Below, piece after piece: positions 9,080-28,528 of a stretch of 32,000 nt of DNA. How positions within the stretch are numbered: position 1 is the first letter of the stretch; every line of letters starts with the position of its first letter. The notes below the pieces were generated by a model. The model did not search any database. It saw only the letters and a program-made list of their open reading frames with translations, and was not told the DNA's origin. Made by a program: the position numbers and the translations under genes. The stretch comes from Desulfotalea psychrophila LSv54 (lineage in GTDB: Bacteria > Desulfobacterota > Desulfobulbia > Desulfobulbales > Desulfocapsaceae). The stretch covers positions 1,530,001-1,562,000 of the forward strand of contig NC_006138.1 of NCBI RefSeq assembly GCF_000025945.1, given 5' to 3'.

Positions 9080-10039
9080 TTAGCATGCGGACTCGCACGG
9101 TTTATGTTTTTTCTGGCACCATACAAGCATAATAATCCCCGTCACTATAAGCAATAGACCAATGATGGCTGCCAGATCGGGTAGGGGGGAATCGAGGAAA
9201 ATCATGCCACCAACCAGGGCAAAGCCCACCTCCGTTGCCTGACTTGCATCAACGCCCGCCAGTTCCGTTGAATCCTTTGCTTTGCTTCTTGCAGCCAGAA
9301 AAATGGTGGTGGCAAGAACACCGGAGAAAAAGGCAACAAGGGAGCTGTTGAGGACCTGTGTAGGGCTTGGCAGCGGTGGATGCAGAATGCAGATAAGTAC
9401 GATCCATAGGGGTACAGAGCCCAGGGAGAGGAGCATGACCTTGTTAAAGGTGTTGTCCAAAAGGGGGGAGTCAATCTTGGGGAGATGGCGGTGTCCTCCT
9501 ATTTTAGCCTCCCAGACCAGCTGGTTGCCAAGCGGATAGCAGAATGTGGCAATCATTACAGGTAGGGCTCCAAGCATTATGGTATGGAGATTAACCTCTC
9601 CCATATGTGACAGGTTGACCAGGCAGGCACCGATAAAGATAAGTAAGGCGAAGAGCCAGACACGTTTAGGGAGTGAGCGACCGAATAGGATAAAGATAAA
9701 GAGACTTGCAACTACAGTGAATTGCCAGGTGGTGGCAATTATCCATCCCGGTGTAAAGTCCGCACTAAAGCAGAGAAGGGCATAGAATGCGCCAAAACCA
9801 ATGCTGCCGCTAAGGAGCCAGAAGATCCAGTTTGAGGCAAAGAGCTTGAGGACATCTTTTATCTGGCGCAGGCCTCCCTGGCTAAAGAGGATGGCAGATA
9901 AGAATATAATCATAAAGAGATAGCGCAGAGATGCTGACCAGAGCCAATGTCCGCCAGCCACACTCATTACCTCATTTAAGAGAAATGTGGAGCTGAAAAA
10001 TGCCCCCGCCAATGTTCCAAGTAAAATCGATTTCAACAT
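9080..10039 (-). CDS. 10-TM DMT-superfamily-like membrane protein ('multidrug resistance efflux transporter family' type)
   Basis: 319-aa hydrophobic ORF. The N-terminus ...FSSTFLLNEVMSVAGGHWLWSASLRYLFMI... resembles that family as I recall it. The substrate is unknown. Confidence 0.55.
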   Translation of the reverse strand: MLKSILLGTLAGAFFSSTFLLNEVMSVAGGHWLWSASLRYLFMIIFLSAILFSQGGLRQIKDVLKLFASNWIFWLLSGSIGFGAFYALLCFSADFTPGWIIATTWQFTVVASLFIFILFGRSLPKRVWLFALLIFIGACLVNLSHMGEVNLHTIMLGALPVMIATFCYPLGNQLVWEAKIGGHRHLPKIDSPLLDNTFNKVMLLSLGSVPLWIVLICILHPPLPSPTQVLNSSLVAFFSGVLATTIFLAARSKAKDSTELAGVDASQATEVGFALVGGMIFLDSPLPDLAAIIGLLLIVTGIIMLVWCQKKHKPCESAC

Positions 10040-12650: not shown

Positions 12651-13760
12651 ATGTCTGAACTATTTGAATTGGCAAAGATAAATGGACTGGAGCTAAAAAA
12701 TCGTTTTATCAGATCGGCAACCTATGAGGCCATGGCAGGTCTTGATGGCAGGGTGACTGATCAACTTTTGCTCTATATGGCAAATCTTGCTCAGGGGGAG
12801 CTGGGACTCATCATTAGCGGGCACACTCATGTGACTCTGGAAGGGCAGGCTGGTCCCAGGCAGATGGGCATATACTCCGATGAGATGATCGAGGGTTTGC
12901 AGAGGTTTACCGCCACGGTTCATGAAAATGGTGGCCTCATTGCTGCCCAACTGGCTCATGCTGGCCTACGGGCTATTGGCAGAAATGAATATGCGCCCTT
13001 GAGTCCTTCAGATCTCTTTGCGGGCAGCCTGAAGGTTGCCTCAGAGATGACCGTTGACGATATAGCCAGAACGGTCAAGGCCTTTGGCGATGCGGGGCAG
13101 AGGGCCGTTGCAGCAGGCTTTGATGCGATCCAGATCCATGCGGCCCATGGTTACTTGCTCAGCCAGTTTTTATCCCCCCACTATAATACCAGAGATGATC
13201 TCTACGGTGGTAGCTTGGAGAATCGGGCCCGCTTTCTCATCCAGGTTTATGAGGAGATCAGGCAAAGAGTCGGAACCTCATTTCCAATCATGGTGAAGAT
13301 CAATTCCGAGGATTTCCTCCCTGGCGGAATCACGACGGAGGAGGTACTAAAGGTATGCCAGATGCTTGAGGAGAGTGGGATAGATGCCATCGAGATGAGT
13401 GGTGGCACCCTTGAATCTGAGGAGCTTATTCCCTCTAGGGTCGGTACGGCAACGTCAGCTGAACGAGAGGTTTACTATAGAAAGGCAGCCGAGGCCTTTA
13501 GAAAGAAGAAGATAGCTGTGCCGCTTATTCTGGTGGGCGGGTTTCTCTCCCTCTATATTGCCGAAGAGGTGGTAGCATCAGGGCTAGCCGACTTTGTGGC
13601 CCTTTCAAGGGCCCTTGTTAGAGAACCGCATCTTGTTAAGAGATGGGCGGCAGGAGATAGAAAAAAGGCAACCTGTATTTCATGCAATAAGTGCTTTTTA
13701 ACCCTTGCCATGCCGGAGGGCCTGTACTGTGCCGTTGAAAAAAAGGCCAGACGTAAATGA
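12651..13760 (+). CDS. NADH:flavin oxidoreductase, Old Yellow Enzyme family, ending in a Cys motif
   Basis: 369-aa ORF with OYE TIM-barrel motifs (LKNRFIRSATYE, AAQLAHAGL, GFDAIQIHAAHGYLLSQFLSPHYNTRDDLYGGSLENRARF). The C-terminal C-x2-C-x2-C-x11-C (CISCNKCF...LYC) resembles the Fe-S linker motif of FadH/enoate-reductase-type enzymes. The protein ends 10 residues later. Confidence 0.85.
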   Translation: MSELFELAKINGLELKNRFIRSATYEAMAGLDGRVTDQLLLYMANLAQGELGLIISGHTHVTLEGQAGPRQMGIYSDEMIEGLQRFTATVHENGGLIAAQLAHAGLRAIGRNEYAPLSPSDLFAGSLKVASEMTVDDIARTVKAFGDAGQRAVAAGFDAIQIHAAHGYLLSQFLSPHYNTRDDLYGGSLENRARFLIQVYEEIRQRVGTSFPIMVKINSEDFLPGGITTEEVLKVCQMLEESGIDAIEMSGGTLESEELIPSRVGTATSAEREVYYRKAAEAFRKKKIAVPLILVGGFLSLYIAEEVVASGLADFVALSRALVREPHLVKRWAAGDRKKATCISCNKCFLTLAMPEGLYCAVEKKARRK

Positions 13761-13804
13761 GAATAGTTGGCTCCCATATCGGTCTTTGAGGAGGTAGGAA
13801 ACGG

Positions 13805-13831
13805 CATTCCGGGACCTTTGGTCCCGGAATG
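13805..13831. terminator. Hairpin between convergent genes (possible bidirectional terminator)
   Basis: CATTCCGGGAC-ctttg-GTCCCGGAATG, an 11-12 bp GC-rich stem. There is no clear U-tract on either side. Confidence 0.4.
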
Positions 13832-13846
13832 AACGTCTCAAAGAGG

Positions 13847-14527
13847 TCAGGCGCCGACCTTTGCTATTGGTCTCTTATTATAAAGGGTAAAATCTGTGAG
13901 ATTGACGTTTGCTGAGTAGCCGATACCCCCCTGCTCGAAGATGATGAGTAGGGTCGTAGGGGTGATTACTCTCTGGCCGATAAAGGTGTTAACGCCCTGC
14001 AGGATCTCTTTGTAGCCCGCGCCCGTTGGTAGCGAAAGGCCAATGGTGAGAGTGTCGTCACCGGTAAGTCGTTTGTCTTCATTTGAGTCAGTCTTTACCA
14101 CCCTGTAGAGAATTGCCTGAACATCTTTTTCCCTTCTTTCTGAAAGAAGCTCAAAATCCACTATTAGATATTGATGAGAGCTTAAAAGCCAATGCTGCTC
14201 ATTAGTTGTGCCGTTTATGAAGAGATAGTTTCTCGCCGAGGTGGATGATTTGCTGTAGTAGGATTGGGCATAATTTTGCTCAGACCTCAAGGGGCTCATG
14301 ACGTAGGGTCCGCCTTCAATATTTGTTAAATATCCCAGCTGCCACTCTTCTTTGATAGCATCTTTTTCTTCAACATTGACGATATTACTGCTACTTCTCT
14401 CTCTGACTATGTCGGTGATTATCTTGTATCCGGCGAAAGTGGATATGCCAATGGCAAGCACCCCTGCTACCATGAGGAGCAAACCGTTAATACGCCAAAC
14501 AAGTGTGAAAAACCTACTCTCTTTCAT
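13847..14527 (-). CDS. Hypothetical membrane-anchored protein (one N-terminal TM helix)
   Basis: 226-aa ORF located 46 nt downstream of rsgA on the same strand. It has an N-terminal hydrophobic helix (LLLMVAGVLAIGISTFAGYKII). I recognise no family. Confidence 0.5.
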   Translation of the reverse strand: MKESRFFTLVWRINGLLLMVAGVLAIGISTFAGYKIITDIVRERSSSNIVNVEEKDAIKEEWQLGYLTNIEGGPYVMSPLRSEQNYAQSYYSKSSTSARNYLFINGTTNEQHWLLSSHQYLIVDFELLSERREKDVQAILYRVVKTDSNEDKRLTGDDTLTIGLSLPTGAGYKEILQGVNTFIGQRVITPTTLLIIFEQGGIGYSANVNLTDFTLYNKRPIAKVGA

Positions 14528-15647: not shown

Positions 15648-16187
15648 TACAATCTCCTTTATAACCGGGCCTGGGATGGGCCGTGGACTTATTACGCTGA
15701 TTTGGTAGGACCCGTGATTTGGCTAATGAACAGGTCGGGTACTGTCTTCTCTGCAGAATGCAGACATTCATCCTTTGGTAACAAACTACAGGGCAATAAT
15801 CAAGGAGAAGGGGGATTGTTTTAGCTGTCTTTTCTTGGCGCCAGGTGAATTTATTCTGATATTTCTTTTACCTGTTTGTTTTTGTTGAGCATATTGTCCT
15901 CACCTTAAAATGGTGAAAAGTTGTTAGGAATATTGTCTGACTATATTTCGGACTGACTGAGAGATACAGTTCCTATAGGCCTCTTTATTTAAGTAGGAAA
16001 AGAGCTTCTTTTTCTGAATGGTATCAACTGTCATTGTTGGTGTGGTGACGCGTAGGTGAGTATGAATGTGTTGCTGTATCTTGAAAAAGGAGAGGCGGGG
16101 CTGAGTTAATATTCTTGTAAGATTTGAGGTGGAGGGTGCTGCCCTCTTCATATTTTTGAGAAGAAAGCAGCAATTCGTTCTTATCTA

Positions 16188-16565
16188 TTATAAATTGACA
16201 ATTGCCTCAATTTCAATGCAACCATCAAGGGGAAGTTTGGCCACTTCAAAGGCACTTCGAGCAGGAAAAGGCTCGGAGAAAAATTCTGCATAAACGATGT
16301 TTGCTCGGACAAAATCTTTCAAATCTGCTAGAAAAACGGTTGTTTTAACAACTTGATCCAAGGTTCCGCCAGCCTCTTCCACTACTGCTTTGAGGTTGTT
16401 AAGGGATTGACGAGTGCAATCCTCGATGCTTCCCTCGCACATTTTTCCGGTTTCAGGATTTATTGGTAGTTGTCCTGAAATGTAGAGGGTATTGCCACTT
16501 TTGATTGCCTGGGAGTATGGTCCTACGGCATTTGGTGCTTTATCTGTTTTGATTTGGACTTTCAT
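16188..16565 (-). CDS. ridA: RidA/YjgF-family enamine/imine deaminase
   Basis: 125-aa ORF: KAPNAVGPYSQAIKSGNTLYISGQLPINPETG..., ...TTVFLADLKDF...PARSAFEVAKLPLDGCIEIEAI. It starts 10 nt after the ygeY stop. Confidence 0.9.
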   Translation of the reverse strand: MKVQIKTDKAPNAVGPYSQAIKSGNTLYISGQLPINPETGKMCEGSIEDCTRQSLNNLKAVVEEAGGTLDQVVKTTVFLADLKDFVRANIVYAEFFSEPFPARSAFEVAKLPLDGCIEIEAIVNL

Positions 16566-16575
16566 TTTGAGTACC

Positions 16576-17775
16576 TTATTTTTTTTGTAAATAGATTATT
16601 GGAATTGCGGCATACATTTGGGTTGCCTTAAGAACCTGCTCTTTTGCTACATATTCGTTGGGCACATGGCAGGCATCCAGAGTGCCAGGACCATAACCAA
16701 TAACGGGTATTTGATGTTTGCCCATGATACCAACGCCGTTAGTTGAAAATGGCCATGTAGTCAGGGTTCCTTCTTTCGCGAAGAGTTCTCGGTAGGCCAT
16801 CAGTGCAGATTTGGTTATCCTGTGTTCTTTTTCGAGTTTCCAGGCGGGGAAGATGCACTCTTTCTGGCATGGTTTTCCCGTATAAGAAGGTTCTGAAAAG
16901 GTGAAAAACTCAACTCGCGCTTCGGCCTCTTGTACTGCCGGGAGTTGTTTTACCTGATCGAGAGCGTATTTTGGTGATTCTCCCCAGGTAAGTCTGCGGT
17001 CAATTGATATTTCGCAATAATCGGCAACGGAGCAGCGGGATGGCGCATGGGCAGAAATTTCTGAAACAACAAGGGTGCCTTTACCGAGTTCTGGGTCTTC
17101 TATTTCTAGATTGTCGTTTAACTGTTCAAGTTCAGTTATGATGCGTGCCATTTTGTAGATAGCATTCTTACCCTTGTGTGGGGTAGATGCATGGGCACTG
17201 AGACCGGATACAGAGATCTTAAATTCCATCCGCCCTTTTTGAGCCAGAGAAATTTCATCATTACTTGGTTCGGCAAGGATAACAAAGTCTGGTTGCAATC
17301 CTTTTTTTTCGATTAAAAACTCCCAGGCAAGGCCTTCACATGGCTCTTCCTGGACAGTAGTACAAACCATATAGGTAAAATCCTCTAGCAGATCTAAGTC
17401 CTTGAGGATTTTCCCGGCATAGAGCATCGAGGCGATGGATGCCTTCATATCGGCGGCGCCACGGCCATAAATGTTCTTTTCATCCTGAGCGCCGGAGGTG
17501 GGGGATTGATGCCACTGCTTTTCGTCTCCATATCCCACAACATCCATATGGGCATCGACGCAGATGAGTTTGGGGCCATGTCCTACCGAACCACAAACAT
17601 TGCCCATTTCGTCGATTTCAACCTTGTCGAAATCAAGGGCCCTCATCTTTTCGGCAACAAGCTGTGCGACCCGGCCTTCATCTCCAGAAAAGCTTTCTGT
17701 CTGGATAAGGGTACTTGCGAAATCGTAGATATTCTGTGCGTAGAATTTGCTGCGATCCTTAATATTATTAAACAT
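16576..17775 (-). CDS. ygeY: YgeY-family M20 metallohydrolase ('selenium-metabolism-linked' hydrolase family)
   Basis: 399-aa ORF collinear with E. coli YgeY as I recall it: DKVEIDEMGNV, GHGPKL..VDAHMDVVG, YGRGAADMK, TVQEEPCEGLAW, SIDRRLTWGE, FSTNGVGIMGKHQIPVIGYGPG. Confidence 0.8.
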   Translation of the reverse strand: MFNNIKDRSKFYAQNIYDFASTLIQTESFSGDEGRVAQLVAEKMRALDFDKVEIDEMGNVCGSVGHGPKLICVDAHMDVVGYGDEKQWHQSPTSGAQDEKNIYGRGAADMKASIASMLYAGKILKDLDLLEDFTYMVCTTVQEEPCEGLAWEFLIEKKGLQPDFVILAEPSNDEISLAQKGRMEFKISVSGLSAHASTPHKGKNAIYKMARIITELEQLNDNLEIEDPELGKGTLVVSEISAHAPSRCSVADYCEISIDRRLTWGESPKYALDQVKQLPAVQEAEARVEFFTFSEPSYTGKPCQKECIFPAWKLEKEHRITKSALMAYRELFAKEGTLTTWPFSTNGVGIMGKHQIPVIGYGPGTLDACHVPNEYVAKEQVLKATQMYAAIPIIYLQKK

Positions 17776-17794
17776 AGTTACCTGGTTAGTGATG

Positions 17795-17824
17795 AGTGCG
17801 TGTATGAGAGTTCATACACGCACT
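17795..17824 (-). other. Perfect 13-bp intercistronic stem-loop between BCCT and ygeY
   Basis: AGTGCGTGTATGA-gagt-TCATACACGCACT, read directly. It occupies most of the 55-nt gap and has no following U-tract on the mRNA strand. Confidence 0.6.
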
Positions 17825-17830
17825 ACGATG

Positions 17831-19363
17831 CTATTTAAATTCTTCTCTGAACTGTTTGAATGTACTGATTATACATAAGAACAGAACAAACATAAGGGGC
17901 AGAGCAAAAATCAGGCTTATACTTTGTAGTAAATCAATGCCGTTTTTTACCCCTAACATAAGAGTCAATGCCATAGCAGCTTGGGCAATTGTCCAAATTA
18001 TTTTCATTCTATTGCTAGGGTTTGGGTCACCATCAGAACTCATACTACTCAGTGTATATGTTGAGCTGTTAATTGAAGTGATAAAACAGGTAAAAAGAGC
18101 CAGTACAACTCCAACGGAAATTACTTTACCGAAAGGTAAGCTTTCGAGAACGATAAAGGTTGCTGCTTTAGAAGAAGCAGCTGCAGCTTTTATCACCTCA
18201 GGCGACGATTCGAGGCCGATGGTTCCAAAGAATGCTACCCAGATGAAAATTCCAAGACATGGCAAGATCATAGAACCAAGGATGAATTCGCGAACAGTTC
18301 TACCCTTTGAAACCCGAGCGATGAATGGTCCAACAAAAGGAGCCCAGGCGATAGCCCATGCATAGTAGTAAATAGGCCATCCTGTTATCCATGAAGTCTC
18401 TTTATCAGCGGCAAATGTTGGCAGCATCAAGGCATCTGAAAAGAAGCTGTTCATGTAGTTGCCAATTGTATCGAAGTAGACGTTAAACATTTTGGTGGTA
18501 GGACCGACTAATCCCACCAATATGAGTATGCCAACGAGCAGATACACATTGTAGTCAGAGAGTACTTTGATACCTTTCTCTAGTCCTGCTGTTGTACAAA
18601 ATATTGTAATTATTGCTATTGTTGCGACTACTACAATTTTCACCAGATCGGAATCTGGTGTGCCGAAAAGGTATTTAAAACTAACACTTAACGAGAGACC
18701 TGTTTGGCCGAGTGATGTTGAAATCCCTGCGATTGCACCGAAGATACAGATAAGGTTGATAGCTTTACCTAAGGGGCCATTTGCCTTATCACGTCCCCAG
18801 GGAATCAAGATGTTACTGATGAGATTGGTTTCACCCTTACGGTACATCATATAGCCGAGGATCAGTCCTACTACAGAAAAAGCAGCCCAGGCTTGTATGC
18901 CTTGGTGGATAAAGCTTTGCTTCATTGCAAATTCAGCAGCTTCTGGTGAAAGTGGTGCGAGCCCTGTTGTCGCTAAGGGGTGTATATAGTGATATACTGG
19001 CTCAGCAACACCCCAATAGAGCATTACTGTTCCCATTCCCGCTGAAAAAAGCATACCCATCCAGGAAAATGTCGAAAAATCAGGGGTGGCATCATCTGGC
19101 CCAAGCTTAATATTTCCGTATTTGCTAAATGCGAAGAAAAACATCACCATCACATAAATAAATGAGCCTGCCATATATACCCAACCAAATCTATCAGTTA
19201 GGTATTTCATTGTTGTTATTCCTGCTTTGTAAAGCAAATCGGGGAAGAGCGCTCCACAAAGAACAACAAGAACAATGAAAGACATTGTGCTAGCGAAAAG
19301 CAATTTGCCCTGCTTGAGTTCGGGGCCTGCATGAGCTTTTTGTTGTATATCTTTAGACATCAA
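17831..19363 (-). CDS. BCCT-family transporter (betaine/carnitine/choline type), copy 1
   Basis: 510-aa polytopic ORF with BCCT hallmarks (FSWMGMLFSAGMGTVMLYWGVAEPVYHY; WPIYYYAWAIAWAPFVGPFIARVSKGRTVREF). The track start is a TTG at 19363. An ATG lies one codon later (19360), with a GAGAGG SD upstream. Confidence 0.9.
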   Translation of the reverse strand: MMSKDIQQKAHAGPELKQGKLLFASTMSFIVLVVLCGALFPDLLYKAGITTMKYLTDRFGWVYMAGSFIYVMVMFFFAFSKYGNIKLGPDDATPDFSTFSWMGMLFSAGMGTVMLYWGVAEPVYHYIHPLATTGLAPLSPEAAEFAMKQSFIHQGIQAWAAFSVVGLILGYMMYRKGETNLISNILIPWGRDKANGPLGKAINLICIFGAIAGISTSLGQTGLSLSVSFKYLFGTPDSDLVKIVVVATIAIITIFCTTAGLEKGIKVLSDYNVYLLVGILILVGLVGPTTKMFNVYFDTIGNYMNSFFSDALMLPTFAADKETSWITGWPIYYYAWAIAWAPFVGPFIARVSKGRTVREFILGSMILPCLGIFIWVAFFGTIGLESSPEVIKAAAASSKAATFIVLESLPFGKVISVGVVLALFTCFITSINSSTYTLSSMSSDGDPNPSNRMKIIWTIAQAAMALTLMLGVKNGIDLLQSISLIFALPLMFVLFLCIISTFKQFREEFK

Positions 19364-19374
19364 TCAATTCCTCT

Positions 19375-20541
19375 CTATGTGATAATGGTAATCTGCTCGC
19401 TGGCACGACGGGTAAGCCATTCTGCTCCATCTTCGGTGATAACAATGTCTTCTTCGTGGACCATATCTTTACCTTTGGCATAGGTCATTCCCGGCTCCAG
19501 GGTAATAACCATTCCGGGTACGAGTGGGGTGTTGTCAGTGGCGGTGTTAGAGGGCCACTCTGTTAGCTGCGAACCAAGTCCATGTCCGAGGCGTCCAACT
19601 TCGTTGCCAAGAGCACCACCTGCCTCCATTACTGCCCACATTGCATTGTAGATATCTGTGGTTGTGGCTCCTGGGTGTGCTGCTGCAAATCCTGCGCTGG
19701 TTGCCTCGTAAACGCATTCGTAGGCTTTTTTGGTTTCAACGCTGCATTCACCAAAGGCGAAGTTGCGATCAAAATCAGAAAAATAACCGTCATAAACGCA
19801 ACCAACATCGATGATAAGCACATCTCCTCTCTCAATATTGCGGGAGGTAGGTCCCATAATGATGCTGTCATAGCCGTCTGGACCGGAACCAGAGATGAGG
19901 TATTTGACAAATTCGGCCCCATCTTCCAACATATCGATACGCATTTGCCGGCAGATATCTCTTTCTGTTTGACCAACACGGGCATGTAGGGGAATACGAT
20001 CAAAGGCATTGTTGGTAATTACGCACGCCTTTCGAATTTTGGCGATTTCGGCAGGAGATTTAACTGAACGCAATCGATGCATTTCAAGGGCAATGTCAAC
20101 GAACTCTTTTCCCTGTAGGCGGGTAGAGAGATTGAGATAGTCGGTGGTTGGCATACGTAAATATGATTGAAGACCGAGTGTTGCACCAACTCTACCGTAT
20201 TTGGTAGGAAGGGCGTTGAGAACTCCAGCGACCAGGGAGATACCGTCGTCTTCCGGGGCAGGGGATGACCAGGTTCTAATGTCATCAATCCATGTAGCCG
20301 CCATACCGCTTGCCCCAATACCCGGGATAACAGCAATAGGCTTGCCCTCTGTGGGAATTATGAGAAACCATGGGCGGGTAGGGCTTTCCCAAAATTGTGT
20401 GTAGTAACCTGTATAATATCGAATGTTTGGTTCGGTGGTGAGGAAAACTGCATCGAGTTTTTTCTCGCGCATAACTGCCTGCATCTTAGCTGTTCGTGCT
20501 TCAAATTCTGCATCGTCAAAACCGAATTCTCTTATGGTCAT
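19375..20541 (-). CDS. M24-family metallohydrolase (creatinase/prolidase fold, metal ligands intact)
   Basis: The N-terminal part is consistent with a Creatinase_N-type domain, followed by the pita-bread domain. Candidate metal ligands are present: IIDVGCVYDGYFSDFDRNF, GHGLG, ITLEPG, VHEEDIV. I place the start at ATG 20541 (MTIREF...) with SD AGAGAGG 7 nt upstream, rather than at the track start 20589, which overlaps dpaL. Confidence 0.8.
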   Translation of the reverse strand: MTIREFGFDDAEFEARTAKMQAVMREKKLDAVFLTTEPNIRYYTGYYTQFWESPTRPWFLIIPTEGKPIAVIPGIGASGMAATWIDDIRTWSSPAPEDDGISLVAGVLNALPTKYGRVGATLGLQSYLRMPTTDYLNLSTRLQGKEFVDIALEMHRLRSVKSPAEIAKIRKACVITNNAFDRIPLHARVGQTERDICRQMRIDMLEDGAEFVKYLISGSGPDGYDSIIMGPTSRNIERGDVLIIDVGCVYDGYFSDFDRNFAFGECSVETKKAYECVYEATSAGFAAAHPGATTTDIYNAMWAVMEAGGALGNEVGRLGHGLGSQLTEWPSNTATDNTPLVPGMVITLEPGMTYAKGKDMVHEEDIVITEDGAEWLTRRASEQITIIT

Positions 20542-20564
20542 AGTAAAGCCTCTCTTTGCTGTTG

Positions 20565-21776
20565 TTATAGGTTGTCGCGTCCGTGCCATAAAACATCCCT
20601 GTACAATTCAGGGGAGGTATCACCTTCGGTGCTGATGCAGAGCACCTGTGCATTCAGGTCGAGGCCAAGCTTTTCCCGGGCCTCTTTTCCCTCTTCGCTG
20701 GTCATTACCCAGTGAAGAAAGCCTGTTGTTGCGGCTCCTGATTCTCCGGAGGTCACCTGTGGATCTCCTTTTATTGGAGCTCCCAAAACTCTCATTCCCG
20801 TTGCGGCAATATCGTCGGAGCAAGACGCATAGGCGACGGGATAATCTCGAAGCATTTCCCAGCTGGTTTTGTTGGGTTCACCGCAGGCGAGTCCGGCCAT
20901 AAGGGTGAGGAGGTCACCTTCAACAGTGTGAGGTTTTCCGTCGTTTGCGCAGGCAGAAACATAAAAACAGTTCGCGGCATCGGGCTCTACGATGATGAAT
21001 TTAGGGCAATCTTTGCCGAAGGCAGACATGAAAAAACCGATCATCGCTCCTGCAAAACAGCCAACTCCAGCCTGGAGTAAAACATGGGTGGGACGTTCAA
21101 TACCCTGTGCCTGCATCTGTTCTAATGCCTCAAGGGCAAGGGTTGTGTATCCCTGCATAATTGTATTCGGAATGTCCTCGTATCCATCCCAAGCTGTATC
21201 TTGTACTGTGATCCATCCCTCCTGTTGTGCTTTGTCCCAGGCCATGCGAACACAGTCGTCGTAATTGAGTTCTGTTATGGTGCAGTCGGAGCCAAGGGCT
21301 TGGATATTGTCGCGACGGATGGGAGCAGAACCCTTTGGCATGTAGATAATGGCTTTTTTATTAAACTCTTTAGCCGCCCATGCCAGGCCTCGTCCATGAT
21401 TCCCATCTGTTGTAGATGCGAAGGTGATATCGCCAATTTTGTCCGAGGTCTCTTTAGAACTCAGGTCAGAACAGCTTACTTCGGAGATATCTTTGCCAAG
21501 CATTTCAGCGAGTATTTTTCCTACGGCGTAGGAACCGCCAAGTACCTTGAAGGCGTTGAGACCAAAGCGATAGGATTCATCTTTTATCAGGATTGATCCA
21601 AGCCCAAGGTGTTCAGCAAGTTGGTCAAGTTTAGCCAAGGGTGTTGGCTGGTAGGATGGAAAGGTTTGGTGGAAGTCTCTAACTTTCTCAGCTACTTCTT
21701 TACTGAGAAGGGAGACCTCTGTCCCTTTTAATGGAGCTATTGGATTTTCATTAAATTTAATTCTAACACTAGACAA
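20565..21776 (-). CDS. dpaL: Diaminopropionate ammonia-lyase (YgeX/DpaL type, PLP-dependent)
   Basis: 403-aa ORF collinear with E. coli YgeX as I recall it: YQPTPL, IKDESYRFGLNAFKVLGGSYA, TTDGNHGRGLAWAA, IYMPKGSA, LLQAGVG, MAGLACGEPN, ISTEGDT. It uses a TTG start, with GAGGGAG 7 nt upstream. Confidence 0.85.
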   Translation of the reverse strand: MSSVRIKFNENPIAPLKGTEVSLLSKEVAEKVRDFHQTFPSYQPTPLAKLDQLAEHLGLGSILIKDESYRFGLNAFKVLGGSYAVGKILAEMLGKDISEVSCSDLSSKETSDKIGDITFASTTDGNHGRGLAWAAKEFNKKAIIYMPKGSAPIRRDNIQALGSDCTITELNYDDCVRMAWDKAQQEGWITVQDTAWDGYEDIPNTIMQGYTTLALEALEQMQAQGIERPTHVLLQAGVGCFAGAMIGFFMSAFGKDCPKFIIVEPDAANCFYVSACANDGKPHTVEGDLLTLMAGLACGEPNKTSWEMLRDYPVAYASCSDDIAATGMRVLGAPIKGDPQVTSGESGAATTGFLHWVMTSEEGKEAREKLGLDLNAQVLCISTEGDTSPELYRDVLWHGRDNL

Positions 21777-21817
21777 AATTATATCTCCCTCTTTGAATTA
21801 TTGGTTGTCTTTGTATT

Positions 21818-21834
21818 AGCATAATGCGTGCCAA
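21818..21834 (-). promoter_or_regulatory. Sigma-54 (-24/-12) promoter for the dpaL operon
   Basis: The minus strand reads TTGGCACGCATTATGCT, against the consensus TGGCACG-N4-TTGCW. GG and GC are both present at the correct spacing, with one mismatch (ATGC for TTGC). It lies about 40 nt upstream of the dpaL start and immediately downstream of a sigma-54 activator gene. Confidence 0.65.
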
Positions 21835-21918
21835 AATCGACAATACTGACAATAGTTCGAAAAAACAGGATCTTAGCCTTTTGCCTGAGGGGGAGGTATG
21901 TTTTTATTCACTTCTCGT

Positions 21919-21947
21919 AATGAGAAAAATTCTAGAAATGAGAAAAA
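21919..21947. repeat. Two copies of the direct repeat AATGAGAAAAA (18-bp phase) between the EBP stop and the sigma-54 promoter; candidate UAS or bend
   Basis: Read directly: copies at 21919-21929 and 21937-21947, about 85-130 bp upstream of the -24 element. A second pair, GACAATA at 21839-21845 and 21848-21854, abuts the -24 element. The function is inferred only. Confidence 0.3.
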
Positions 21948-21949
21948 GA

Positions 21950-23698
21950 TTAATAGGTACTTGTTTTGCGGTATAGCGTTGCGAGGCTGATGCCAAGACT
22001 TTTAGCGGCCTGTCTTTTTCCTTCGGTGGAGTCACCGTACAGGGCAATAGCTCTTGTAATTGCTTGGAACTCTAACTCTTTGAGAGGTATTACCGGGGGG
22101 TGGTTATTTGGGCTGAGGGGTATGGTGGTGCCTAGGTTTTCGGGGTTTACTAAAAAGCCTGAATAGATGGAGGTTTCATCTATTTTTCCCTTCTTGTCTG
22201 CAATGTTAACAAGGTATTCTATGGCATTTTCAAGCTCTCTGATGTTGCCGGGCCAGAGGTATTTTTCCATACGTTGCCTAATGTTTTTAGAGAGAAAAAT
22301 CTGGTCTTTGTTAAATAAATCACAGTATTTATTTGTAAAATGTTTGATGAGTAAGGTGAGATCTTCCATTCGATTTCGAAGTGGAGGTGTTTCAATGGGA
22401 ATAACATTGAGGCGATAATAAAGGTCGTTTCTGAACTTATTTTGCAGCATCATCTCGTGGAGATTATCATTACATGCGGCGATTATACGAATGTCCACCG
22501 AGATAGGGTTTGCAGCCCCGAGTCGGGTGATGGTTCTTTCCTGCAGAACCCTGAGCAATTTTACTTGCAAATAAAGGGGCATAGAAGATATCTCATCGAG
22601 GAAAATTACGCCACCTGCCGCAAGCTCAAACTTGCCAATTTGACCTTGTTTGGATGCCCCTGTGAAGGCTCCACCAACATAACCAAAGAGCTCACTTTCA
22701 AGTAAGGTATCAGGGATGGCTCCGCAGTTAATGGCAACAAAAGGCTCCTTGTTTCTATTGCCAGAAAAATGAATAGCTCGGGCAACCAGCTCTTTTCCTG
22801 TGCCACTTTCGCCAGAGATAAGAACCGATGAGTTGGTGTCTGAGGTTGCCTGTATTTGGCTTTTTAATGTTCTAATAAGAGGAGAGTTTCCGATAATATG
22901 CTGTAGTGATGCATCTTCCGGGGAACTTGGTCCTGAGGATAAAGATATAACAGATTGGATGGTATCAAAGATAAAAACAGAGGAGAATCTGCTTGTCTTG
23001 GAATCGAGCTTAACCCTTTTTCCTGCCAGTAGCTGTTGCCTATCTCCTTGTCTTATGATGAATTCGTCAAGGTCGGAGAATGTCACGCCTGTGGCTGTCA
23101 GGGAGAAATTCTCAAAATTAGAATTAAGGGTTTTGTGCAAAATTTCTTGGGCTCTGGCGTTTTTGAAAACAACTTTTCCGTTTGTGTCACAAATCATGGT
23201 GCCACGGTTGTTTATCTCTATGACCTCTGACATTGCATCAAAAAGATCGTTAAGATTTTTTTGAGCATGTTTTTCAAGTACATGGGCTGCGATACTGCTA
23301 GTGAGTAATTGGAGGAAATTTACATAAACATCTCTTTGCGGAATAAGTTTTTTTCGAATCTCTTCAGAGAAGCAGATGAGTTCCATTGCCCCATAGGTGT
23401 TTTTTCCGTCGGAAATGGGGGCACAGATAGAGAGGAGCTCATGGCATTGTTCTTTGGTTTGGCAACCCTTGCATATGCTATTTTTCCTGGGGTTTTCAAT
23501 AAAAAGAGGTTTGGTACTTTTCAGTGTGGCTTTGAGAAGATTACCTGCTTTTTTTATGCTTTTCCCAATGTTTTTTGAGTAATCCCCAGTGCCTGCAATT
23601 CTGATGAGGTTGGTATCAACAACTTCAACTTCAAAACCAGTTACCTTGGATATTGTATCAGCGTAATATTGAATTTGTTTTTGCAGACTGAGTAACAC
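21950..23698 (-). CDS. Sigma-54-dependent transcriptional activator (YgeV-like: N-terminal sensory domain with Cys cluster, PAS-like region, AAA+ domain, Fis-type HTH)
   Basis: AAA+ motifs GESGTGKELVARAIH and GAFTGA, ESELFGY, and a C-terminal HTH (AAKSLGISLATLYRK). The N-terminus (FEVEVVDTNLIRIAGTGDY ... CKGCQTKEQC) resembles E. coli YgeV as I recall it. I prefer the GTG start at 23698 (AGGAG 5 nt upstream). The maximal ORF begins at a TTG at 23752, which has no SD. Confidence 0.88.
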   Translation of the reverse strand: MLLSLQKQIQYYADTISKVTGFEVEVVDTNLIRIAGTGDYSKNIGKSIKKAGNLLKATLKSTKPLFIENPRKNSICKGCQTKEQCHELLSICAPISDGKNTYGAMELICFSEEIRKKLIPQRDVYVNFLQLLTSSIAAHVLEKHAQKNLNDLFDAMSEVIEINNRGTMICDTNGKVVFKNARAQEILHKTLNSNFENFSLTATGVTFSDLDEFIIRQGDRQQLLAGKRVKLDSKTSRFSSVFIFDTIQSVISLSSGPSSPEDASLQHIIGNSPLIRTLKSQIQATSDTNSSVLISGESGTGKELVARAIHFSGNRNKEPFVAINCGAIPDTLLESELFGYVGGAFTGASKQGQIGKFELAAGGVIFLDEISSMPLYLQVKLLRVLQERTITRLGAANPISVDIRIIAACNDNLHEMMLQNKFRNDLYYRLNVIPIETPPLRNRMEDLTLLIKHFTNKYCDLFNKDQIFLSKNIRQRMEKYLWPGNIRELENAIEYLVNIADKKGKIDETSIYSGFLVNPENLGTTIPLSPNNHPPVIPLKELEFQAITRAIALYGDSTEGKRQAAKSLGISLATLYRKTSTY

Positions 23699-24078
23699 GA
23701 TTGCTCCTAATGATGGGGGTGCTTGGTTTACTATTTGCTTCCATAGGGGCAAGAGGATTGGGTGTATGAAAATTTACCAAATAGTTCGGCGAGGTTGTTA
23801 TGAACAAGATAAACAGATTGGCTACATATTTTTATAAATAAAATTAAGGCCAGAGAAGTCTCCCCATATGGACATAGTAATATAACCGATTGTACGTGCT
23901 TTTTGCTATCTTTTACTGTCGGAGCGGATTTGTTAGCTTGGAAATGTCCACAACACGGTATTGTCATCTGCTTTTGGGCATAGTGTTTTTATTGATGAAA
24001 TATCGTGAGCTAAAAAATGTTGGTAGGAGATAATGAAAAATAGAGGTGTTGTCTTTTTGTTGCCAGGAGTGTGCAGCA

Positions 24079-24961: not shown

Positions 24962-25912
24962 TTATCTTTTTGCCCTCTTGTTTGCTGCGACACAGGAGAG
25001 GAATGCATGCATGATGCCGGCGGCGGCAAAAGAGGTGATCTCTGCATTGTCTGACTCTGGAAGTACCTCCACCAGATCCATCCCCACCAGTTCCTGGCCT
25101 TGGCAGCAGTTAAGGACAAGCTTGAGAGCCTCATGGGTGGTGAAACCGCCAATCTCGGGAGTTCCTGTGCCCGGTGCATAGGCGGCATCAAGAAAATCAA
25201 TATCAAACGACATGAAAACAGGGGTACCCGGGCTGATACGCTCTTTGATGCGCTTGATTGCCTCGTTTATACCTATTTCATGAAGCTCCCAGCCGGTGAT
25301 AACCTGCATACCGCTTTCGCGGACAAACTTGAGCGAATCTCTGCCGTAGAGGGGGCCTCGGATTCCCGTCTGGGTGGACTCCTCAGGCTTGATCAAACCC
25401 TCCTTGATGGCCCAATGGAAGGTGGTGCCGTGGTTGTAGGGCTTACCGAAGTAATCACTTCCCGTATCCGAGTGAGCATCAAAGTGAATAAGGGCCACGG
25501 GGCCATGCTTCTTAACGATGGAACGCAGTTGCGGCAGGGTGATGGAGTGGTCTCCACCCATAACAACAGGAATGATGTCATTTTTTAAGAGGGCACTCAT
25601 TCCCTCTTCAATGCGCTCAAATGACTCATCCAGGTGGCCGGGAATAATATCAATATCGCCGTAATCAACACCGCTACACTCTTCAAATATATCCACGTCA
25701 AGCACCTCTTCATAGGACTTGAGTATGGTAGAGGCAGCCCGAATACCAGCAGGCCCGAAGCGACATCCTGGCTTATAAGTGGTGGCAGTATCAAAAGGAA
25801 TGCCAAGGACGGCAAAGTCTATATCCTGTAGATCCGTTTGATAGGGAAGACGCATAAAGGTTCTTATGCCACAAAAGCGGGGCGAGGCAAGGGCATTTAC
25901 TGGCTTAGACAT
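24962..25912 (-). CDS. Agmatinase/guanidino-acid hydrolase-type ureohydrolase (arginase superfamily)
   Basis: Mn-ligand motifs are all present: VMGGDHSITLP, IHFDAHSDTG, MSFDIDFLDAAYAPGTGTPE. I place the start at the internal ATG 25912 (MSKPVNAL..., AAGGAAA SD) rather than at the track start 25996, which overlaps the BCCT gene. Confidence 0.85.
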   Translation of the reverse strand: MSKPVNALASPRFCGIRTFMRLPYQTDLQDIDFAVLGIPFDTATTYKPGCRFGPAGIRAASTILKSYEEVLDVDIFEECSGVDYGDIDIIPGHLDESFERIEEGMSALLKNDIIPVVMGGDHSITLPQLRSIVKKHGPVALIHFDAHSDTGSDYFGKPYNHGTTFHWAIKEGLIKPEESTQTGIRGPLYGRDSLKFVRESGMQVITGWELHEIGINEAIKRIKERISPGTPVFMSFDIDFLDAAYAPGTGTPEIGGFTTHEALKLVLNCCQGQELVGMDLVEVLPESDNAEITSFAAAGIMHAFLSCVAANKRAKR

Positions 25913-25940
25913 GGTCTGTTTTCCTTGTAATGATTTGTTT

Positions 25941-27557
25941 TTAAAGTGCTTCTTTTTGTAGTTGGCTCTTGAGGATTTCGCTCTTAAGCATTTCAATCTG
26001 TTCTATTTCGCTCTGGCGTTTTTCCATTTCGCTATGTTGCATTTCGCTCTTGAGGTCTTTTAGCAAAGACCAGAGCATAAAGATCATTCCGATACCAAAG
26101 GGGGCGCCGGCTATGATACATGCACTCTTTAATGCGCCGAGTCCGCCGCTTACTAAGAGGACAACTGCGAGGGTGCCGAGGAATGCGCCCCAAACCACCT
26201 TCATAAGGGTTTTGGGTTCGTAGGCACCCTTAGACATGAGCATGGCCACAAAGAATGAAGCTGAATCCGCCGAGGTAACGAGGAAGAGGATCATGTTTAT
26301 AAAGACAATAATGCTGAGCAATTTGGCGAAGGGAAGGGTGCTGAGTAGCATATATATGCCGGAGCCTACATCTGCTGAAATGCTTGTCCACATGGGTGCT
26401 GTCTGGTTCATCTCTGCCAGAATGGAAGAGCCGCCAACAATGGTAAACCAGACAAGGCTAAAGGCGGTGGGAGCTAAAACGGCACCTACGATAAAGCCTC
26501 GGATGGTACGTCCACGGGAGATACGGGCAATAAATCCGCCGACAAAGGGAGCCCAGGCAATGGTTAGGAGCCAGCAGAAGAGGGTCCAGCTGGAAAACCA
26601 CTTGCTGTGTTGTTGTAAGGGATCGGTATAAAAGGTCATGGGAATAAATTCACTGACATAGCTGCCTACGTTATTTACCAGCAGACGCAGCAGGGTATTT
26701 GTCTCTCCAAAAATAAGAATAAAGAGACACCATGAGATTGCCAGAATAATATTAACATTACTCAAAAAGGCCATGCCTCGGTGCAGTCCTGTTATGGCTG
26801 AAATAACATAGAGACCAATGATAATAGCCATAATGAGCAGCTTGCCCCCAACGCCAACTTCTATGCCGAAGATAAGTCCAGCCCCGTAGCTTAGGGAGAT
26901 AATACCAAGTCCAAGGGCAGTACTGAGTCCTCCTACCGTAGCAATGGCACCAATGGTATCGAGGAGACGTCCCCACACGCTGGTACTTGCCTTGTCACCA
27001 AGCAGTCCGTGTAGGGCAACAGAGAGGGTCATGGGGCGATTCTGCCTAAAGGCAGGAAAGGCAATGCAGAGGCCCACTATGGAGTAGCCCATCCAACAGT
27101 GAATACCCCAGTGGAATGATGCTATGCGAATGGCGACAGGAAGAGCCTCGGGGCTGCCGGCAACAGCGCCGTAGGGGGTGTTCATAAAGTGGAACATGGG
27201 TTCAGCAGCACCCCATAAAACATAGCCAACGCCAATGCCGCAACTAAAGAGCATGGCGATCCAGGTGGTGGTGCTGAACTCCGGTTCATCACCGGCCTGT
27301 CCCAGGGTAAGGTTGCCATATTTACTGATGGCAACGCCAAAGCCCACGATGATACAGAGGGCCATAATTGAGACGTAAAGCCAGCCAAAGGTATCTGCAA
27401 TATAGGCCCGTCCTGCCATGGCGTATTTACCTAAGATTTCAGGGTAGATGGCACCAAATACTACGATAGCAAGAGTTACCAGGGCGGTGGTATAGAAGAG
27501 AAATGGGTCGTATTGGCCCAGTAATCTTGTCATTAAATTGTTTTTTTGCTTCGACAT
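25941..27557 (-). CDS. BCCT-family transporter, copy 2, with a repetitive charged C-terminal tail
   Basis: 538-aa ORF with BCCT hallmarks (WIAMLFSCGIGVGYVLWGAAEPMFHF; WTLFCWLLTIAWAPFVGGFIARISRGRTIRGF). There is a GAGGA SD 4 nt upstream of the ATG. The tail reads KSEMQHSEMEKRQSEIEQIEMLKSEILKSQLQKEAL. Confidence 0.9.
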   Translation of the reverse strand: MSKQKNNLMTRLLGQYDPFLFYTTALVTLAIVVFGAIYPEILGKYAMAGRAYIADTFGWLYVSIMALCIIVGFGVAISKYGNLTLGQAGDEPEFSTTTWIAMLFSCGIGVGYVLWGAAEPMFHFMNTPYGAVAGSPEALPVAIRIASFHWGIHCWMGYSIVGLCIAFPAFRQNRPMTLSVALHGLLGDKASTSVWGRLLDTIGAIATVGGLSTALGLGIISLSYGAGLIFGIEVGVGGKLLIMAIIIGLYVISAITGLHRGMAFLSNVNIILAISWCLFILIFGETNTLLRLLVNNVGSYVSEFIPMTFYTDPLQQHSKWFSSWTLFCWLLTIAWAPFVGGFIARISRGRTIRGFIVGAVLAPTAFSLVWFTIVGGSSILAEMNQTAPMWTSISADVGSGIYMLLSTLPFAKLLSIIVFINMILFLVTSADSASFFVAMLMSKGAYEPKTLMKVVWGAFLGTLAVVLLVSGGLGALKSACIIAGAPFGIGMIFMLWSLLKDLKSEMQHSEMEKRQSEIEQIEMLKSEILKSQLQKEAL

Positions 27558-27841
27558 AATATCCTCAAAAGTCAGTTAGATGGGGGCAAAAATGTTTCTG
27601 CTGTTAACGGTCAAACTATACTACTGCCACCTCCTTCCGCTTTGCGGGGGCCAAACAATGATACCATCTAATGTTTTGTTAGAAGCTTTAACTGGTGTAT
27701 CAGATTTGGTAAAGAAAAAATTAATAGTCAATATTCGAGACAAATAATCGTGTAAAGACGAGTATTTACATTACTTTTTGTTGTGGCACAGCTACTCTGT
27801 TTTATTGGCCCCATCCTGGGACAGGGCCAAGGCTCTACTCT

Positions 27842-28528
27842 CTAATGGAAGTATATGGCAAATATATGTTCTTTATTGTACTCGAAATCCCAATGTCTCT
27901 CTTTTACATAGTATCGTAAATCTGTTTCATTCTTTTCCCGCAGGGCCCGAATGATCAGGTCATGTTCGTCACAGCCATCAAGGAACCAACGTTGCACAAA
28001 GTTGCGACGTGGCAGATCCCACAATCGATTTTGCACGGGGACAAGTATTCGTTCCGCAAACAGATTCGGTGCTACGGTCAGAAAATAGTCATGGGACTTT
28101 CTATGCAGGATATCGTATTGTTGAATATCTTCGGCGTAGATGCTTTTGCGCATCTCTTTCACCACCTCTTCCATCTCATCGAGGATGGATGCTGTATAAT
28201 GAGGCATGCCACGTATACAGAGGGTGTTTTCCAGTGAGCCAATAACTTCGTAGAGGTATTGAAAATCTTCTTTTTCAAGTTTATTTACAATGACCTTACT
28301 ACGGGGGTAAATCGTTACAATACCTTCAGCCTCCAAGCGAATAAGGGCATCACGCAGAGGTGTACGGCTAATTTGTAGATGTTCGCTTAACTCGGTAAGG
28401 TTGAGACTGTTACCGGGTAAAATTTCCCCCTCTTGCATACGTTTTCTTAAATAGTTGTATACTAGGTCACGGGCAACCCGAGAAATTTTCTTCTGGACTG
28501 TTTTCTTTTTATTCACCATACCTCTCAA
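27842..28528 (-). CDS. GntR-family transcriptional regulator (FadR/FCD-like C-terminal domain)
   Basis: Winged-helix region: ...GEILPGNSLNLTELSEHLQISRTPLRDALIRLEAEGIVTIYPRSKVIV... It is followed by an all-helical domain of about 150 aa. The start is uncertain: either TTG 28528 or ATG 28519. Confidence 0.85.
   Translation of the reverse strand: MRGMVNKKKTVQKKISRVARDLVYNYLRKRMQEGEILPGNSLNLTELSEHLQISRTPLRDALIRLEAEGIVTIYPRSKVIVNKLEKEDFQYLYEVIGSLENTLCIRGMPHYTASILDEMEEVVKEMRKSIYAEDIQQYDILHRKSHDYFLTVAPNLFAERILVPVQNRLWDLPRRNFVQRWFLDGCDEHDLIIRALREKNETDLRYYVKERHWDFEYNKEHIFAIYFH

Follow-up and report, generated by a model that had tools for sequence, protein, structure and literature searches.

In Escherichia coli and Clostridium, anaerobic degradation of urate ends with a pair of enzymes that acquired a biochemical role only in 2025, when two studies reconstituted the reactions: YgeY converts mono-ureido-2,3-diaminopropionate to 2,3-diaminopropionate (DAP), and YgeX (DpaL) converts DAP to pyruvate (PMC12507026; bioRxiv 10.1101/2025.04.24.650524). 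The studies differ over the YgeY substrate, which is albizziin according to one and the 2-ureido isomer according to its counterpart (PMC12507026; bioRxiv 10.1101/2025.04.24.650524). DpaL is also known to release free 2-aminoacrylate (PMC9127364). Here we describe a locus in which homologues of this pair are wired to a different feeder, namely an M24-family hydrolase and a BCCT-family transporter. It lies in a stretch of 32,000 nucleotides from Desulfotalea psychrophila LSv54 (contig NC_006138.1, positions 1,530,001 to 1,562,000 of the forward strand), referred to below as the window; all positions are counted from its first letter.

All of the part families, and the end reactions, are already known. 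What is new, relative to the literature that we searched, is the feeder made of the M24 protein and an importer, YgeV-type control outside a purine context, and repeated reassembly of the set in marine bacteria. Full-text searches for dpaL with BCCT, for DAP with M24 and marine, and for DAP with ectoine and imidazoline found no description of the gene set, in agreement with a preliminary description of this DNA that knew of no characterised pathway with this combination. The system is defined by its gene content, by the families to which its products belong, by the conservation of its promoter and upstream sites, and by the recurrent co-location of its parts in other genomes, which we scanned using one genome per species (54 loci found, their open reading frames clustered). 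The same parts, that is, a zwitterion importer, the M24 protein, usually a second hydrolase, DpaL and RidA, recur under at least three types of regulator. This constitutes strong genomic evidence for what appears to be a dedicated route ending at DAP and pyruvate.

Gene content and control region of the operon

The minus strand carries six genes in head-to-tail arrangement, in the order EBP (for a sigma-54 enhancer-binding protein), dpaL, M24, BCCT, ygeY and ridA. With the associated elements, and with the open reading frame (ORF) calls on which they rest, they are as follows.

21950–23752, minus strand: EBP gene (ORF call, Sigma54_activat)
21930–21944, minus strand: candidate upstream activator site, copy 1, TTCTCATTTCTAGAA
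21912–21926, minus strand: candidate upstream activator site, copy 2, TTCTCATTACGAGAA
21818–21834, minus strand: predicted sigma-54 (−24/−12) promoter, TTGGCACGCATTATGCT, ~42 nt before the dpaL start
20565–21776, minus strand: dpaL, with a TTG start that is kept in orthologues
19375–20541, minus strand: M24 hydrolase gene, ATG at 20541, 388 aa, same as the NCBI D. psychrophila protein
17831–19363, minus strand: BCCT transporter gene (ORF call and Pfam)
16576–17775, minus strand: ygeY (ORF call and profile match)
16188–16565, minus strand: ridA (ORF call and profile match)
16131–16147, strand undefined: G+C-rich hairpin ~40 nt past the ridA stop, a possible operon end

The ORF calls reproduced exactly the five same-strand genes and the gaps that had been reported between them (dpaL/M24, 23 nt; M24/BCCT, 11 nt; BCCT/ygeY, 55 nt; ygeY/ridA, 10 nt). 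The spacer from the EBP gene to dpaL measures 173 nt, and the TTG start of dpaL is preceded by a good ribosome-binding site.

DpaL scores above two equivalog cut-offs (TIGR03528, 675.7 bits against 532.25; NF006058, 568.5 against 276) and, by BLASTP, is 50% identical to E. coli DpaL. It keeps the counterparts of E. coli K77, D120 and D189, in GLNAFKVLGG, TTDGNHGRG and VQDTAW, respectively; we take these to be the pyridoxal 5′-phosphate (PLP) lysine and two active-site aspartates of the E. coli enzyme. Judged by these features, the dpaL product is a diaminopropionate ammonia-lyase of PLP fold type II. YgeY, an M20-family amidohydrolase of the ArgE/DapE type, likewise exceeds its cut-offs (TIGR03526, 684 bits against 321.5; NF009555, 547 against 321) and is 48% identical to E. 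coli YgeY, so the identities first proposed for both proteins hold at the level of curated equivalogs. RidA passes TIGR00004 (167.6 bits against 106.25) and has, near its C-terminus, a PARS motif whose arginine is presumably the conserved active-site arginine. The release of free 2-aminoacrylate by DpaL explains the presence of ridA in the operon, and ridA lies beside dpaL in most related loci. Of the other families suggested in the preliminary description, Creatinase_N, Peptidase_M24, BCCT and Sigma54_activat were all matched by profile search.

The regulator carries the GESGTGKE and GAFTGA motifs and matches Sigma54_activat with 230 bits (cut-off 20.2). BLASTP aligned it with E. coli YgeV over residues 19–600 (36% identity, E = 2e-120), an alignment that takes in the N-terminal sensor and the C-terminal tail, which resembles a helix–turn–helix (HTH). 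Because the alignment spans the full length, sensor included, the label 'YgeV-like' holds in the strict sense: the protein is a homologue of the YgeV/UacR type, with an AAA+ domain containing GAFTGA, a YgeV-like N-terminal sensor and a C-terminal HTH. The sensor also contains a three-cysteine CxGCxxKExC motif (residues ~94–103; window ~23450–23490, minus strand), which reads ICKGCQTKEQC here and LCEGCDSKENC in YgeV and may be a metal- or redox-sensing site.

A relaxed −24/−12 pattern matched once in the window where 1.55 matches are expected, which is not significant by count, and the sequence alone therefore proves little. A −24/−12 element (TTTTGGCAYGCTCTCTGCT) precedes dpaL in all five orthologous Desulfovibrionaceae loci (L001–L005), with one or two TTCTCA-N-GAGAA palindromes per locus further upstream of the promoter, at a relative position matching that in the window. 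In the window this palindrome occurs twice, against 0.01 occurrences expected, and both copies fall in the EBP–dpaL spacer region. The pair is situated ~100 nt upstream of the promoter, which is the usual position of an activator site. It is this conservation before dpaL in five loci, together with a palindrome pair found nowhere else in the window, that makes the promoter credible, and the paired palindrome is probably where the EBP binds. Thus the near-consensus sigma-54 promoter of the preliminary description is supported by position and conservation, and the upstream same-strand activator that it named, with GESGTGKE, GAFTGA and an HTH, has every one of these features.

The M24 hydrolase and the BCCT carrier

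The M24 protein consists of the Pfam domains Creatinase_N and Peptidase_M24 and is publicly annotated as a Xaa-Pro peptidase. No NCBIfam equivalog passed for it, the best matches all being far under their cut-offs (archaeal PepQ, 136 bits against 630; DoeA_2/NF038259, 82.8 against 575; EutD/TIGR02993, 71.9 against 613). The metal site is that of a Xaa-Pro peptidase: D245, D256, H320, E349 and E364 align to D260, D271, H354, E383 and E406 of E. coli aminopeptidase P (AMPP), and all five are invariant in 48 relatives. The accessory histidines of such peptidases are missing. AMPP H243, H350 and H361, which we take to be substrate-binding and proton-shuttle histidines, are replaced by Met229, by a deleted segment next to Arg317 and by Thr327, and all three replacements are invariant across the M24 family.

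We judged the active site of the ectoine hydrolase EutD from an alignment to Sinorhizobium meliloti EutD, which scores 839 bits on TIGR02993 and is 26–27% identical to the M24 protein. In that alignment, four of the five ligand columns are occupied in EutD by E, P, Y and K, where the M24 family has D, D, H and E. An AlphaFold2 model of the M24 protein (predicted local distance difference test score, 87.5) was about equidistant from prolidases, creatinase and EutD in Foldseek searches (TM-score 0.76–0.86, 20–28% identity). The family has invariant signatures of its own (SPTRPW, DFDRN, VGRxGHGLG and TEWP) and remains ~70% identical across phyla, from Desulfobacterota to Pseudovibrio, Enterovibrio, Rheinheimera and Shewanella.

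Since the metal ligands are kept, the accessory histidines are replaced, EutD is distant and the fold is equidistant, we set the M24 protein apart as a member of its own subfamily. By these sequence criteria it is a predicted metal-dependent hydrolase, distinct from prolidases, creatinases and ectoine hydrolases. The three known assignments were each rejected: DoeA/EutD on account of scores far under both cut-offs and a different active-site make-up, a plain prolidase on account of the lost accessory histidines, and creatinase on account of the retained metal ligands and only 20–22% identity to creatinase structures. Creatinase is a metal-free enzyme, and the preliminary description had already excluded an enzyme of that kind from the presence of all the metal ligands, which the alignments bear out.

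The BCCT protein belongs to its family in the general sense (Pfam BCCT, 530 bits; cut-off 27) and falls under both the glycine-betaine equivalog NF047988 (467 bits against 650) and BetT (336 against 695). Its transmembrane helix 8 (TM8) is non-canonical (GWPIYYYAWAIAWAPFVG). Where BetT reads ...FFWAWWVAW..., it has YAWA for WAWW, so that Tyr and Ala take the place of two BetT tryptophans, and this YAWA-type motif is identical in every M24-linked BCCT. A pocket of this kind would be expected to hold a group unlike the compact trimethylammonium head. In related loci the transporter is of the BCCT, TRAP, EamA or ABC type, and BCCT, TRAP and ABC are families known to carry ectoine (PMC13188858). 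Taken with the altered aromatic box, carriers of these three families favour a cationic ring as the substrate. The BCCT protein of the window probably acts as an importer, with transport directed into the cell.

Related loci and the predicted route

The order EBP-dpaL-M24-(BCCT)-ygeY-ridA is kept in five loci (L001–L005), from Halodesulfovibrio, Maridesulfovibrio and three metagenome-assembled genomes (MAGs) of Desulfovibrionaceae/Desulfovibrio. The Halodesulfovibrio version (L001) has 10 genes, with a TRAP system in place of BCCT, a EutA-like gene and a CysK-like PLP enzyme. A differently arranged set is present in four species of Pseudovibrio, in Rheinheimera and on a Vibrio cortegadensis plasmid, where dpaL, ridA and a YheO-type PAS/HTH regulator are divergent from M24-BCCT-M20D. 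DpaL in loci of this type scores 563–572 bits, over the strict TIGR03528 cut-off. Enterovibrio has the Pseudovibrio-type set with EamA in place of BCCT and an added EutA-like gene; a Photobacterium plasmid (L060) has dpaL, an AsnC regulator and a racemase-like gene-M20-DctPQM-M24 run; and gammaproteobacterial MAGs have ABC-ridA-dadA-(EutA-like)-(GATase1-like)-dpaL-M24. Hence the neighbourhood survey suggested in the preliminary description recovered not only a conserved order in Desulfovibrionaceae but the same functional set in Proteobacteria and on plasmids, with other M20 enzymes and other regulators.

Most of the dpaL-bearing lineages have a second hydrolase beside M24, the sole candidate in the gammaproteobacterial MAGs being a class-I glutamine-amidotransferase (GATase1)-like protein, with no M20. 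The M20D partners score best on DoeB2 (~320 bits against a cut-off of 550) and the racemase-like partners on EutA (173–244 bits against 318). In 18 of the 30 loci with an M24 of 57% identity or higher, dpaL lies no more than 8 kb away; several of those remaining are on truncated contigs. Relatives with 55% identity or less (Acidimicrobiia, Roseibium and others) were set aside, their contexts being too heterogeneous to inform on the substrate.

Between Desulfotalea and Pseudovibrio, the BCCT proteins are 80% and the M24 proteins 70% identical, compared with 50% for both DpaL and RidA. This better conservation of the M24–BCCT pair, and the presence of whole clusters on plasmids of Vibrio cortegadensis and Photobacterium, suggest that an M24-transporter core spread horizontally and then joined the local dpaL. 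In a Desulfobulbaceae MAG (L054) the order is EBP-M24-ygeY-ridA, and dpaL is reduced to its last ~80 codons (9576–9830) between EBP and M24. After ridA, at 12802–14262, this locus encodes a 486-aa CysK/CBS-like PLP enzyme that is also encoded in L001, L011 and L042; it could serve as a substitute lyase, or else the arrangement may be an assembly artefact.

On balance, we favour a substrate-inducible catabolic operon with a YgeV/UacR-type activator, uptake, two hydrolyses to DAP and conversion of DAP to pyruvate. The activator would bind the paired TTCTCA-N-GAGAA site and fire the −24/−12 promoter before dpaL-M24-BCCT-ygeY-ridA. BCCT would take up a zwitterion in which both nitrogens of DAP are masked, as is suggested by the presence of two hydrolases ahead of DpaL. 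The most plausible mask would be a bridge that closes a ring, as in a cyclic amidine or guanidine of the imidazoline type, which would be the counterpart of ectoine with five ring members; DAP could instead carry two acyl or carbamoyl groups. The dinuclear-metal M24 enzyme would then perform the first C–N hydrolysis, which in a bridged ring (cyclic amidine, guanidine or urea) would leave N-acyl- or N-carbamoyl-DAP for the M20 enzyme. Such chemistry would parallel that of ectoine hydrolase, which takes an amidine to an N-acetyl-diamino acid, or of creatinase, where C–N hydrolysis of a guanidine yields urea and a secondary amine. YgeY would free DAP from whichever N-carbamoyl or N-acyl group was left; DpaL would eliminate both amino groups via 2-aminoacrylate; and RidA would hydrolyse the 2-aminoacrylate, the products being pyruvate and two or three NH3. 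We infer both the class of substrate and the order of action, M24 before M20.

The parallel with ectoine catabolism that the preliminary description had drawn stands in part. The partners found in other genomes do score best on DoeB2 and EutA, although under the cut-offs, but the M24 protein is not of the DoeA type. Most of the metal ligands have no counterpart in the aligned S. meliloti EutD, and the analogy is therefore one of pathway logic and not of shared enzymology.

A broader proposal, which we advance only tentatively, is that the set represents a widespread marine route (Desulfobacterota, Alpha- and Gammaproteobacteria, Vibrionaceae plasmids) for an unrecognised metabolite, either a ring-closed, 'nor-ectoine'-like compound or a doubly N-masked DAP, and that M24 is its committed ring-opening or first-deacylating hydrolase. 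We know of no natural compound of the predicted type. Repeated rebuilding of the wiring in marine bacteria and plasmids usually signals a real and reasonably common substrate. If the proposal were true, marine dissolved organic matter would contain, as a common currency, a nitrogen-rich zwitterion that has so far escaped notice. Identifying the substrate would add to marine carbon and nitrogen cycling a new compound, each molecule of which releases two to three nitrogens. A large M24 family annotated as 'Xaa-Pro peptidase' would thereby gain a function, and regulators of the YgeV and YheO types a class of ligands. Carriers of the system that can be cultured include Pseudovibrio, Vibrio cortegadensis, Enterovibrio and Halodesulfovibrio.

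Several observations weigh against the route that we favour. Close relatives of the M24 protein occur without dpaL: three Desulfobacterales MAG loci (L006, L007 and L011), whose M24 is 71–72% identical to that of the window, have the arrangement SHMT-M24-EutA-like (SHMT, serine hydroxymethyltransferase), and in a related pair of loci (L009 and L010) M24 lies with a sarcosine-oxidase-like flavoprotein and a EutA-like gene, accompanied in L010 by an ABC system. The SHMT-linked loci without dpaL imply that the M24 product need not always lead to DAP, and the Desulfobacterales arrangements suggest a sister pathway with a different end. The gammaproteobacterial MAG version, with its GATase1-like protein and DadA, has no M20, and a EutA-like partner is found in 24 of the 54 loci, whereas a EutA-like gene, SHMT, M20D and a CysK-like enzyme were all looked for in the Desulfotalea window and none was found. 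As to the enzyme itself, M24 is predicted to be mechanistically unlike EutD, retaining ligands that are missing from S. meliloti EutD when the two are aligned, and is nearer by sequence to dipeptidases than to DoeA (PepE, 126 bits; DoeA, 45). The sigma-54 motif alone is no commoner than chance. Finally, the five-membered ectoine analogue DHMICA has been described only as a synthetic compound (PMC5924519).

One of the SHMT-linked loci, L011, also contains a TRAP system, a YgeY-family gene (47% identity, over the TIGR03526 cut-off) and the CysK-like enzyme mentioned above.

The remainder of the window holds several other features. Downstream of the operon, the ridA–rsgA interval (15648–16187, ~540 nt) has no ORF of at least 80 aa and contains the hairpin at 16131–16147; an Rfam search of the window, this interval included, returned 0 RNA families. 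The T-run of the hairpin is on the plus strand only, making it weak evidence for a minus-strand terminator. A separate minus-strand cluster at 24962–28528 comprises a GntR/FCD regulator (27842–28528), a second BCCT (25941–27557) and an arginase/agmatinase-family ureohydrolase (24962–25996), and may be a unit for the uptake and hydrolysis of a guanidino compound. TM8 of this second BCCT is, judged by eye, also off the Trp-rich motif (SWTLFCWLLTIAWAPFVG). We treated the three genes as separate from the dpaL-M24 system because their adjacency to it is conserved in no related locus. On the plus strand, two adenine-deaminase paralogues lie in tandem at 3203–4987 (382 bits, under the TIGR01178 cut-off of 472) and 4996–6726 (620 bits, over it), followed at 6753–8300 by a 515-aa ORF that matches nothing in Pfam or NCBIfam. 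The minus strand at 221–2557 encodes all of pxpCBA, the 5-oxoprolinase operon, which is of interest only in that 2-oxo-imidazolidine-4-carboxylate, a ring that could conceivably derive from DAP, is well known as an analogue of 5-oxoproline.

Alternative explanations and comparison with known systems

Among the alternatives, the one that survives best, though we consider it unlikely, is salvage of intermediates of reductive urate (2,8-dioxopurine) degradation. Here 2,3-diureidopropionate or mono-ureido-DAP released by other microbes would be taken up, M24 would replace YgeW/UacY, and YgeY and DpaL would act as in E. coli. The regulator, DpaL and YgeY are indeed all homologous to the E. coli trio, the TRAP transporters of some relatives suit anionic carboxylates, and the window contains two adenine deaminase paralogues. 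Moreover, C. difficile swaps YgeW for an unrelated amidohydrolase (PMC12507026). However, an anionic ureide with uncharged nitrogens fits a BCCT carrier poorly, diureidopropionate has no known external source, and the hosts are free-living marine or invertebrate-associated organisms and not inhabitants of the urate-rich gut. The upstream urate genes argue in the same direction: xdhD, ygfK (or uacX), ssnA, hyuA, ygeW and a carbamate kinase gene are all absent from the ORFs of the window, which bears out the earlier remark that the carbamoyltransferase, hydantoinase-like and carbamate-kinase partners are missing, and none of xdhD, ygfK, ssnA, hyuA and ygeW/uacY is conserved in the related loci. 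For lack of these genes in the window, a cryptic urate cluster was rejected.

It is very unlikely that the locus is a variant operon for ectoine or 5-hydroxyectoine, with M24 as the ectoine hydrolase, YgeY as the deacetylase and DpaL as a dehydratase of 3-hydroxy-2,4-diaminobutyrate. M24 reaches only 72 and 83 bits against the DoeA cut-offs of 613 and 575, and it is only 26–27% identical to a bona fide EutD, from which it differs in the active site. The partners in other genomes are nearest to DoeB2 and EutA in NCBIfam, the BCCT, TRAP and ABC carriers belong to families known for ectoines, and the SHMT of the Desulfobacterales variants could cleave a β-hydroxy amino acid; but neither a 2,4-diaminobutyrate transaminase nor an aspartate-semialdehyde dehydrogenase is present, and DpaL passes the DAP-lyase equivalog with the counterparts of K77, D120 and D189 kept. 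In addition, a survey of ectoine clusters that includes Thermodesulfobacteriota mentions no such set (PMC13188858).

Equally improbable, in our estimation, is general scavenging of peptides or amino acids, whereby M24 and YgeY would be ordinary dipeptidases (acting, for example, on DAP- or D-amino-acid peptides) and DpaL and RidA would deaminate the freed DAP or serine. This would agree with the public annotation as a Xaa-Pro peptidase, with the closeness of M24 to PepE and prolidases in sequence and fold, and with its intact dinuclear metal site; the gammaproteobacterial versions, too, have a peptide/opine-type ABC binding protein and DadA. Yet the three accessory histidines are replaced in a way that is invariant in the family, and BCCT carriers are not peptide transporters. 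Furthermore, ~70% identity of M24 across phyla and its fixed linkage to dpaL argue for one specific small substrate.

The least probable explanation is that the common intermediate is serine or another β-substituted alanine, with DpaL as a serine-type dehydratase: SHMT or a CysK-like PLP enzyme does lie beside close M24 relatives in some loci, and L054 retains only the C-terminal remnant of dpaL, but DpaL matches at equivalog level and conserves the catalytic residues, its neighbours include YgeY and a YgeV-like regulator, just as they do in the pathway proven to form DAP, and a DpaL over the strict cut-off also accompanies M24 in Pseudovibrio, Rheinheimera and Enterovibrio.

Returning to the route that we favour, in which two hydrolyses lead to DAP, its nearest described relative is the E. 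coli module ygeV | ygeW-ygeX(dpaL)-ygeY-hyuA-yqeA. The two share a sigma-54 activator (36% identity), DpaL (50%) and YgeY (48%), and the expected end reactions are the same, from N-carbamoyl-DAP through DAP to pyruvate and NH3. They differ in that the Desulfotalea window has M24, BCCT and RidA in place of xdhD, ygfK, ssnA, hyuA, ygeW and carbamate kinase, and in that the Desulfotalea palindrome is unlike the inverted repeat that inspection by eye reveals ahead of E. coli ygeW. The Desulfotalea host, besides, is a marine sulfate reducer.

With the Xaa-Pro dipeptidases and aminopeptidase P (PepQ, PepE and PepP), the M24 protein shares the two-domain pita-bread fold (TM-score 0.76–0.86 to 4EGE, 4FKC and 1PV9) and the five ligands. 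It is only 24–28% identical to them, however, and is set apart by the replaced accessory histidines, by signatures of its own and by the fixed link to dpaL. Similarly, it has the Creatinase_N plus M24 architecture of creatinase (creatine amidinohydrolase; TM-score ~0.83 to 1KP0 and 1CHM), but at only 20–22% identity and with the metal ligands kept.

Ectoine catabolism (EutD/DoeA, EutE/DoeB or DoeB2, EutA, and Ehu, Ueh or BCCT transporters) resembles the predicted route in its overall plan: a zwitterion is imported, and a hydrolase of the M24 fold and a deacylase convert it to a diamino acid. BCCT, TRAP and ABC carriers occur in both, and the partners in other genomes are distant relatives of DoeB2 and EutA. 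In Desulfotalea, by contrast, the deacylase is YgeY, and M24 keeps a metal site that EutD lacks in the alignment. The two routes would also end differently, the ectoine route through DoeD and DoeC, which lead a C4 compound to aspartate, and the Desulfotalea route through DpaL, which would lead a C3 compound to pyruvate.

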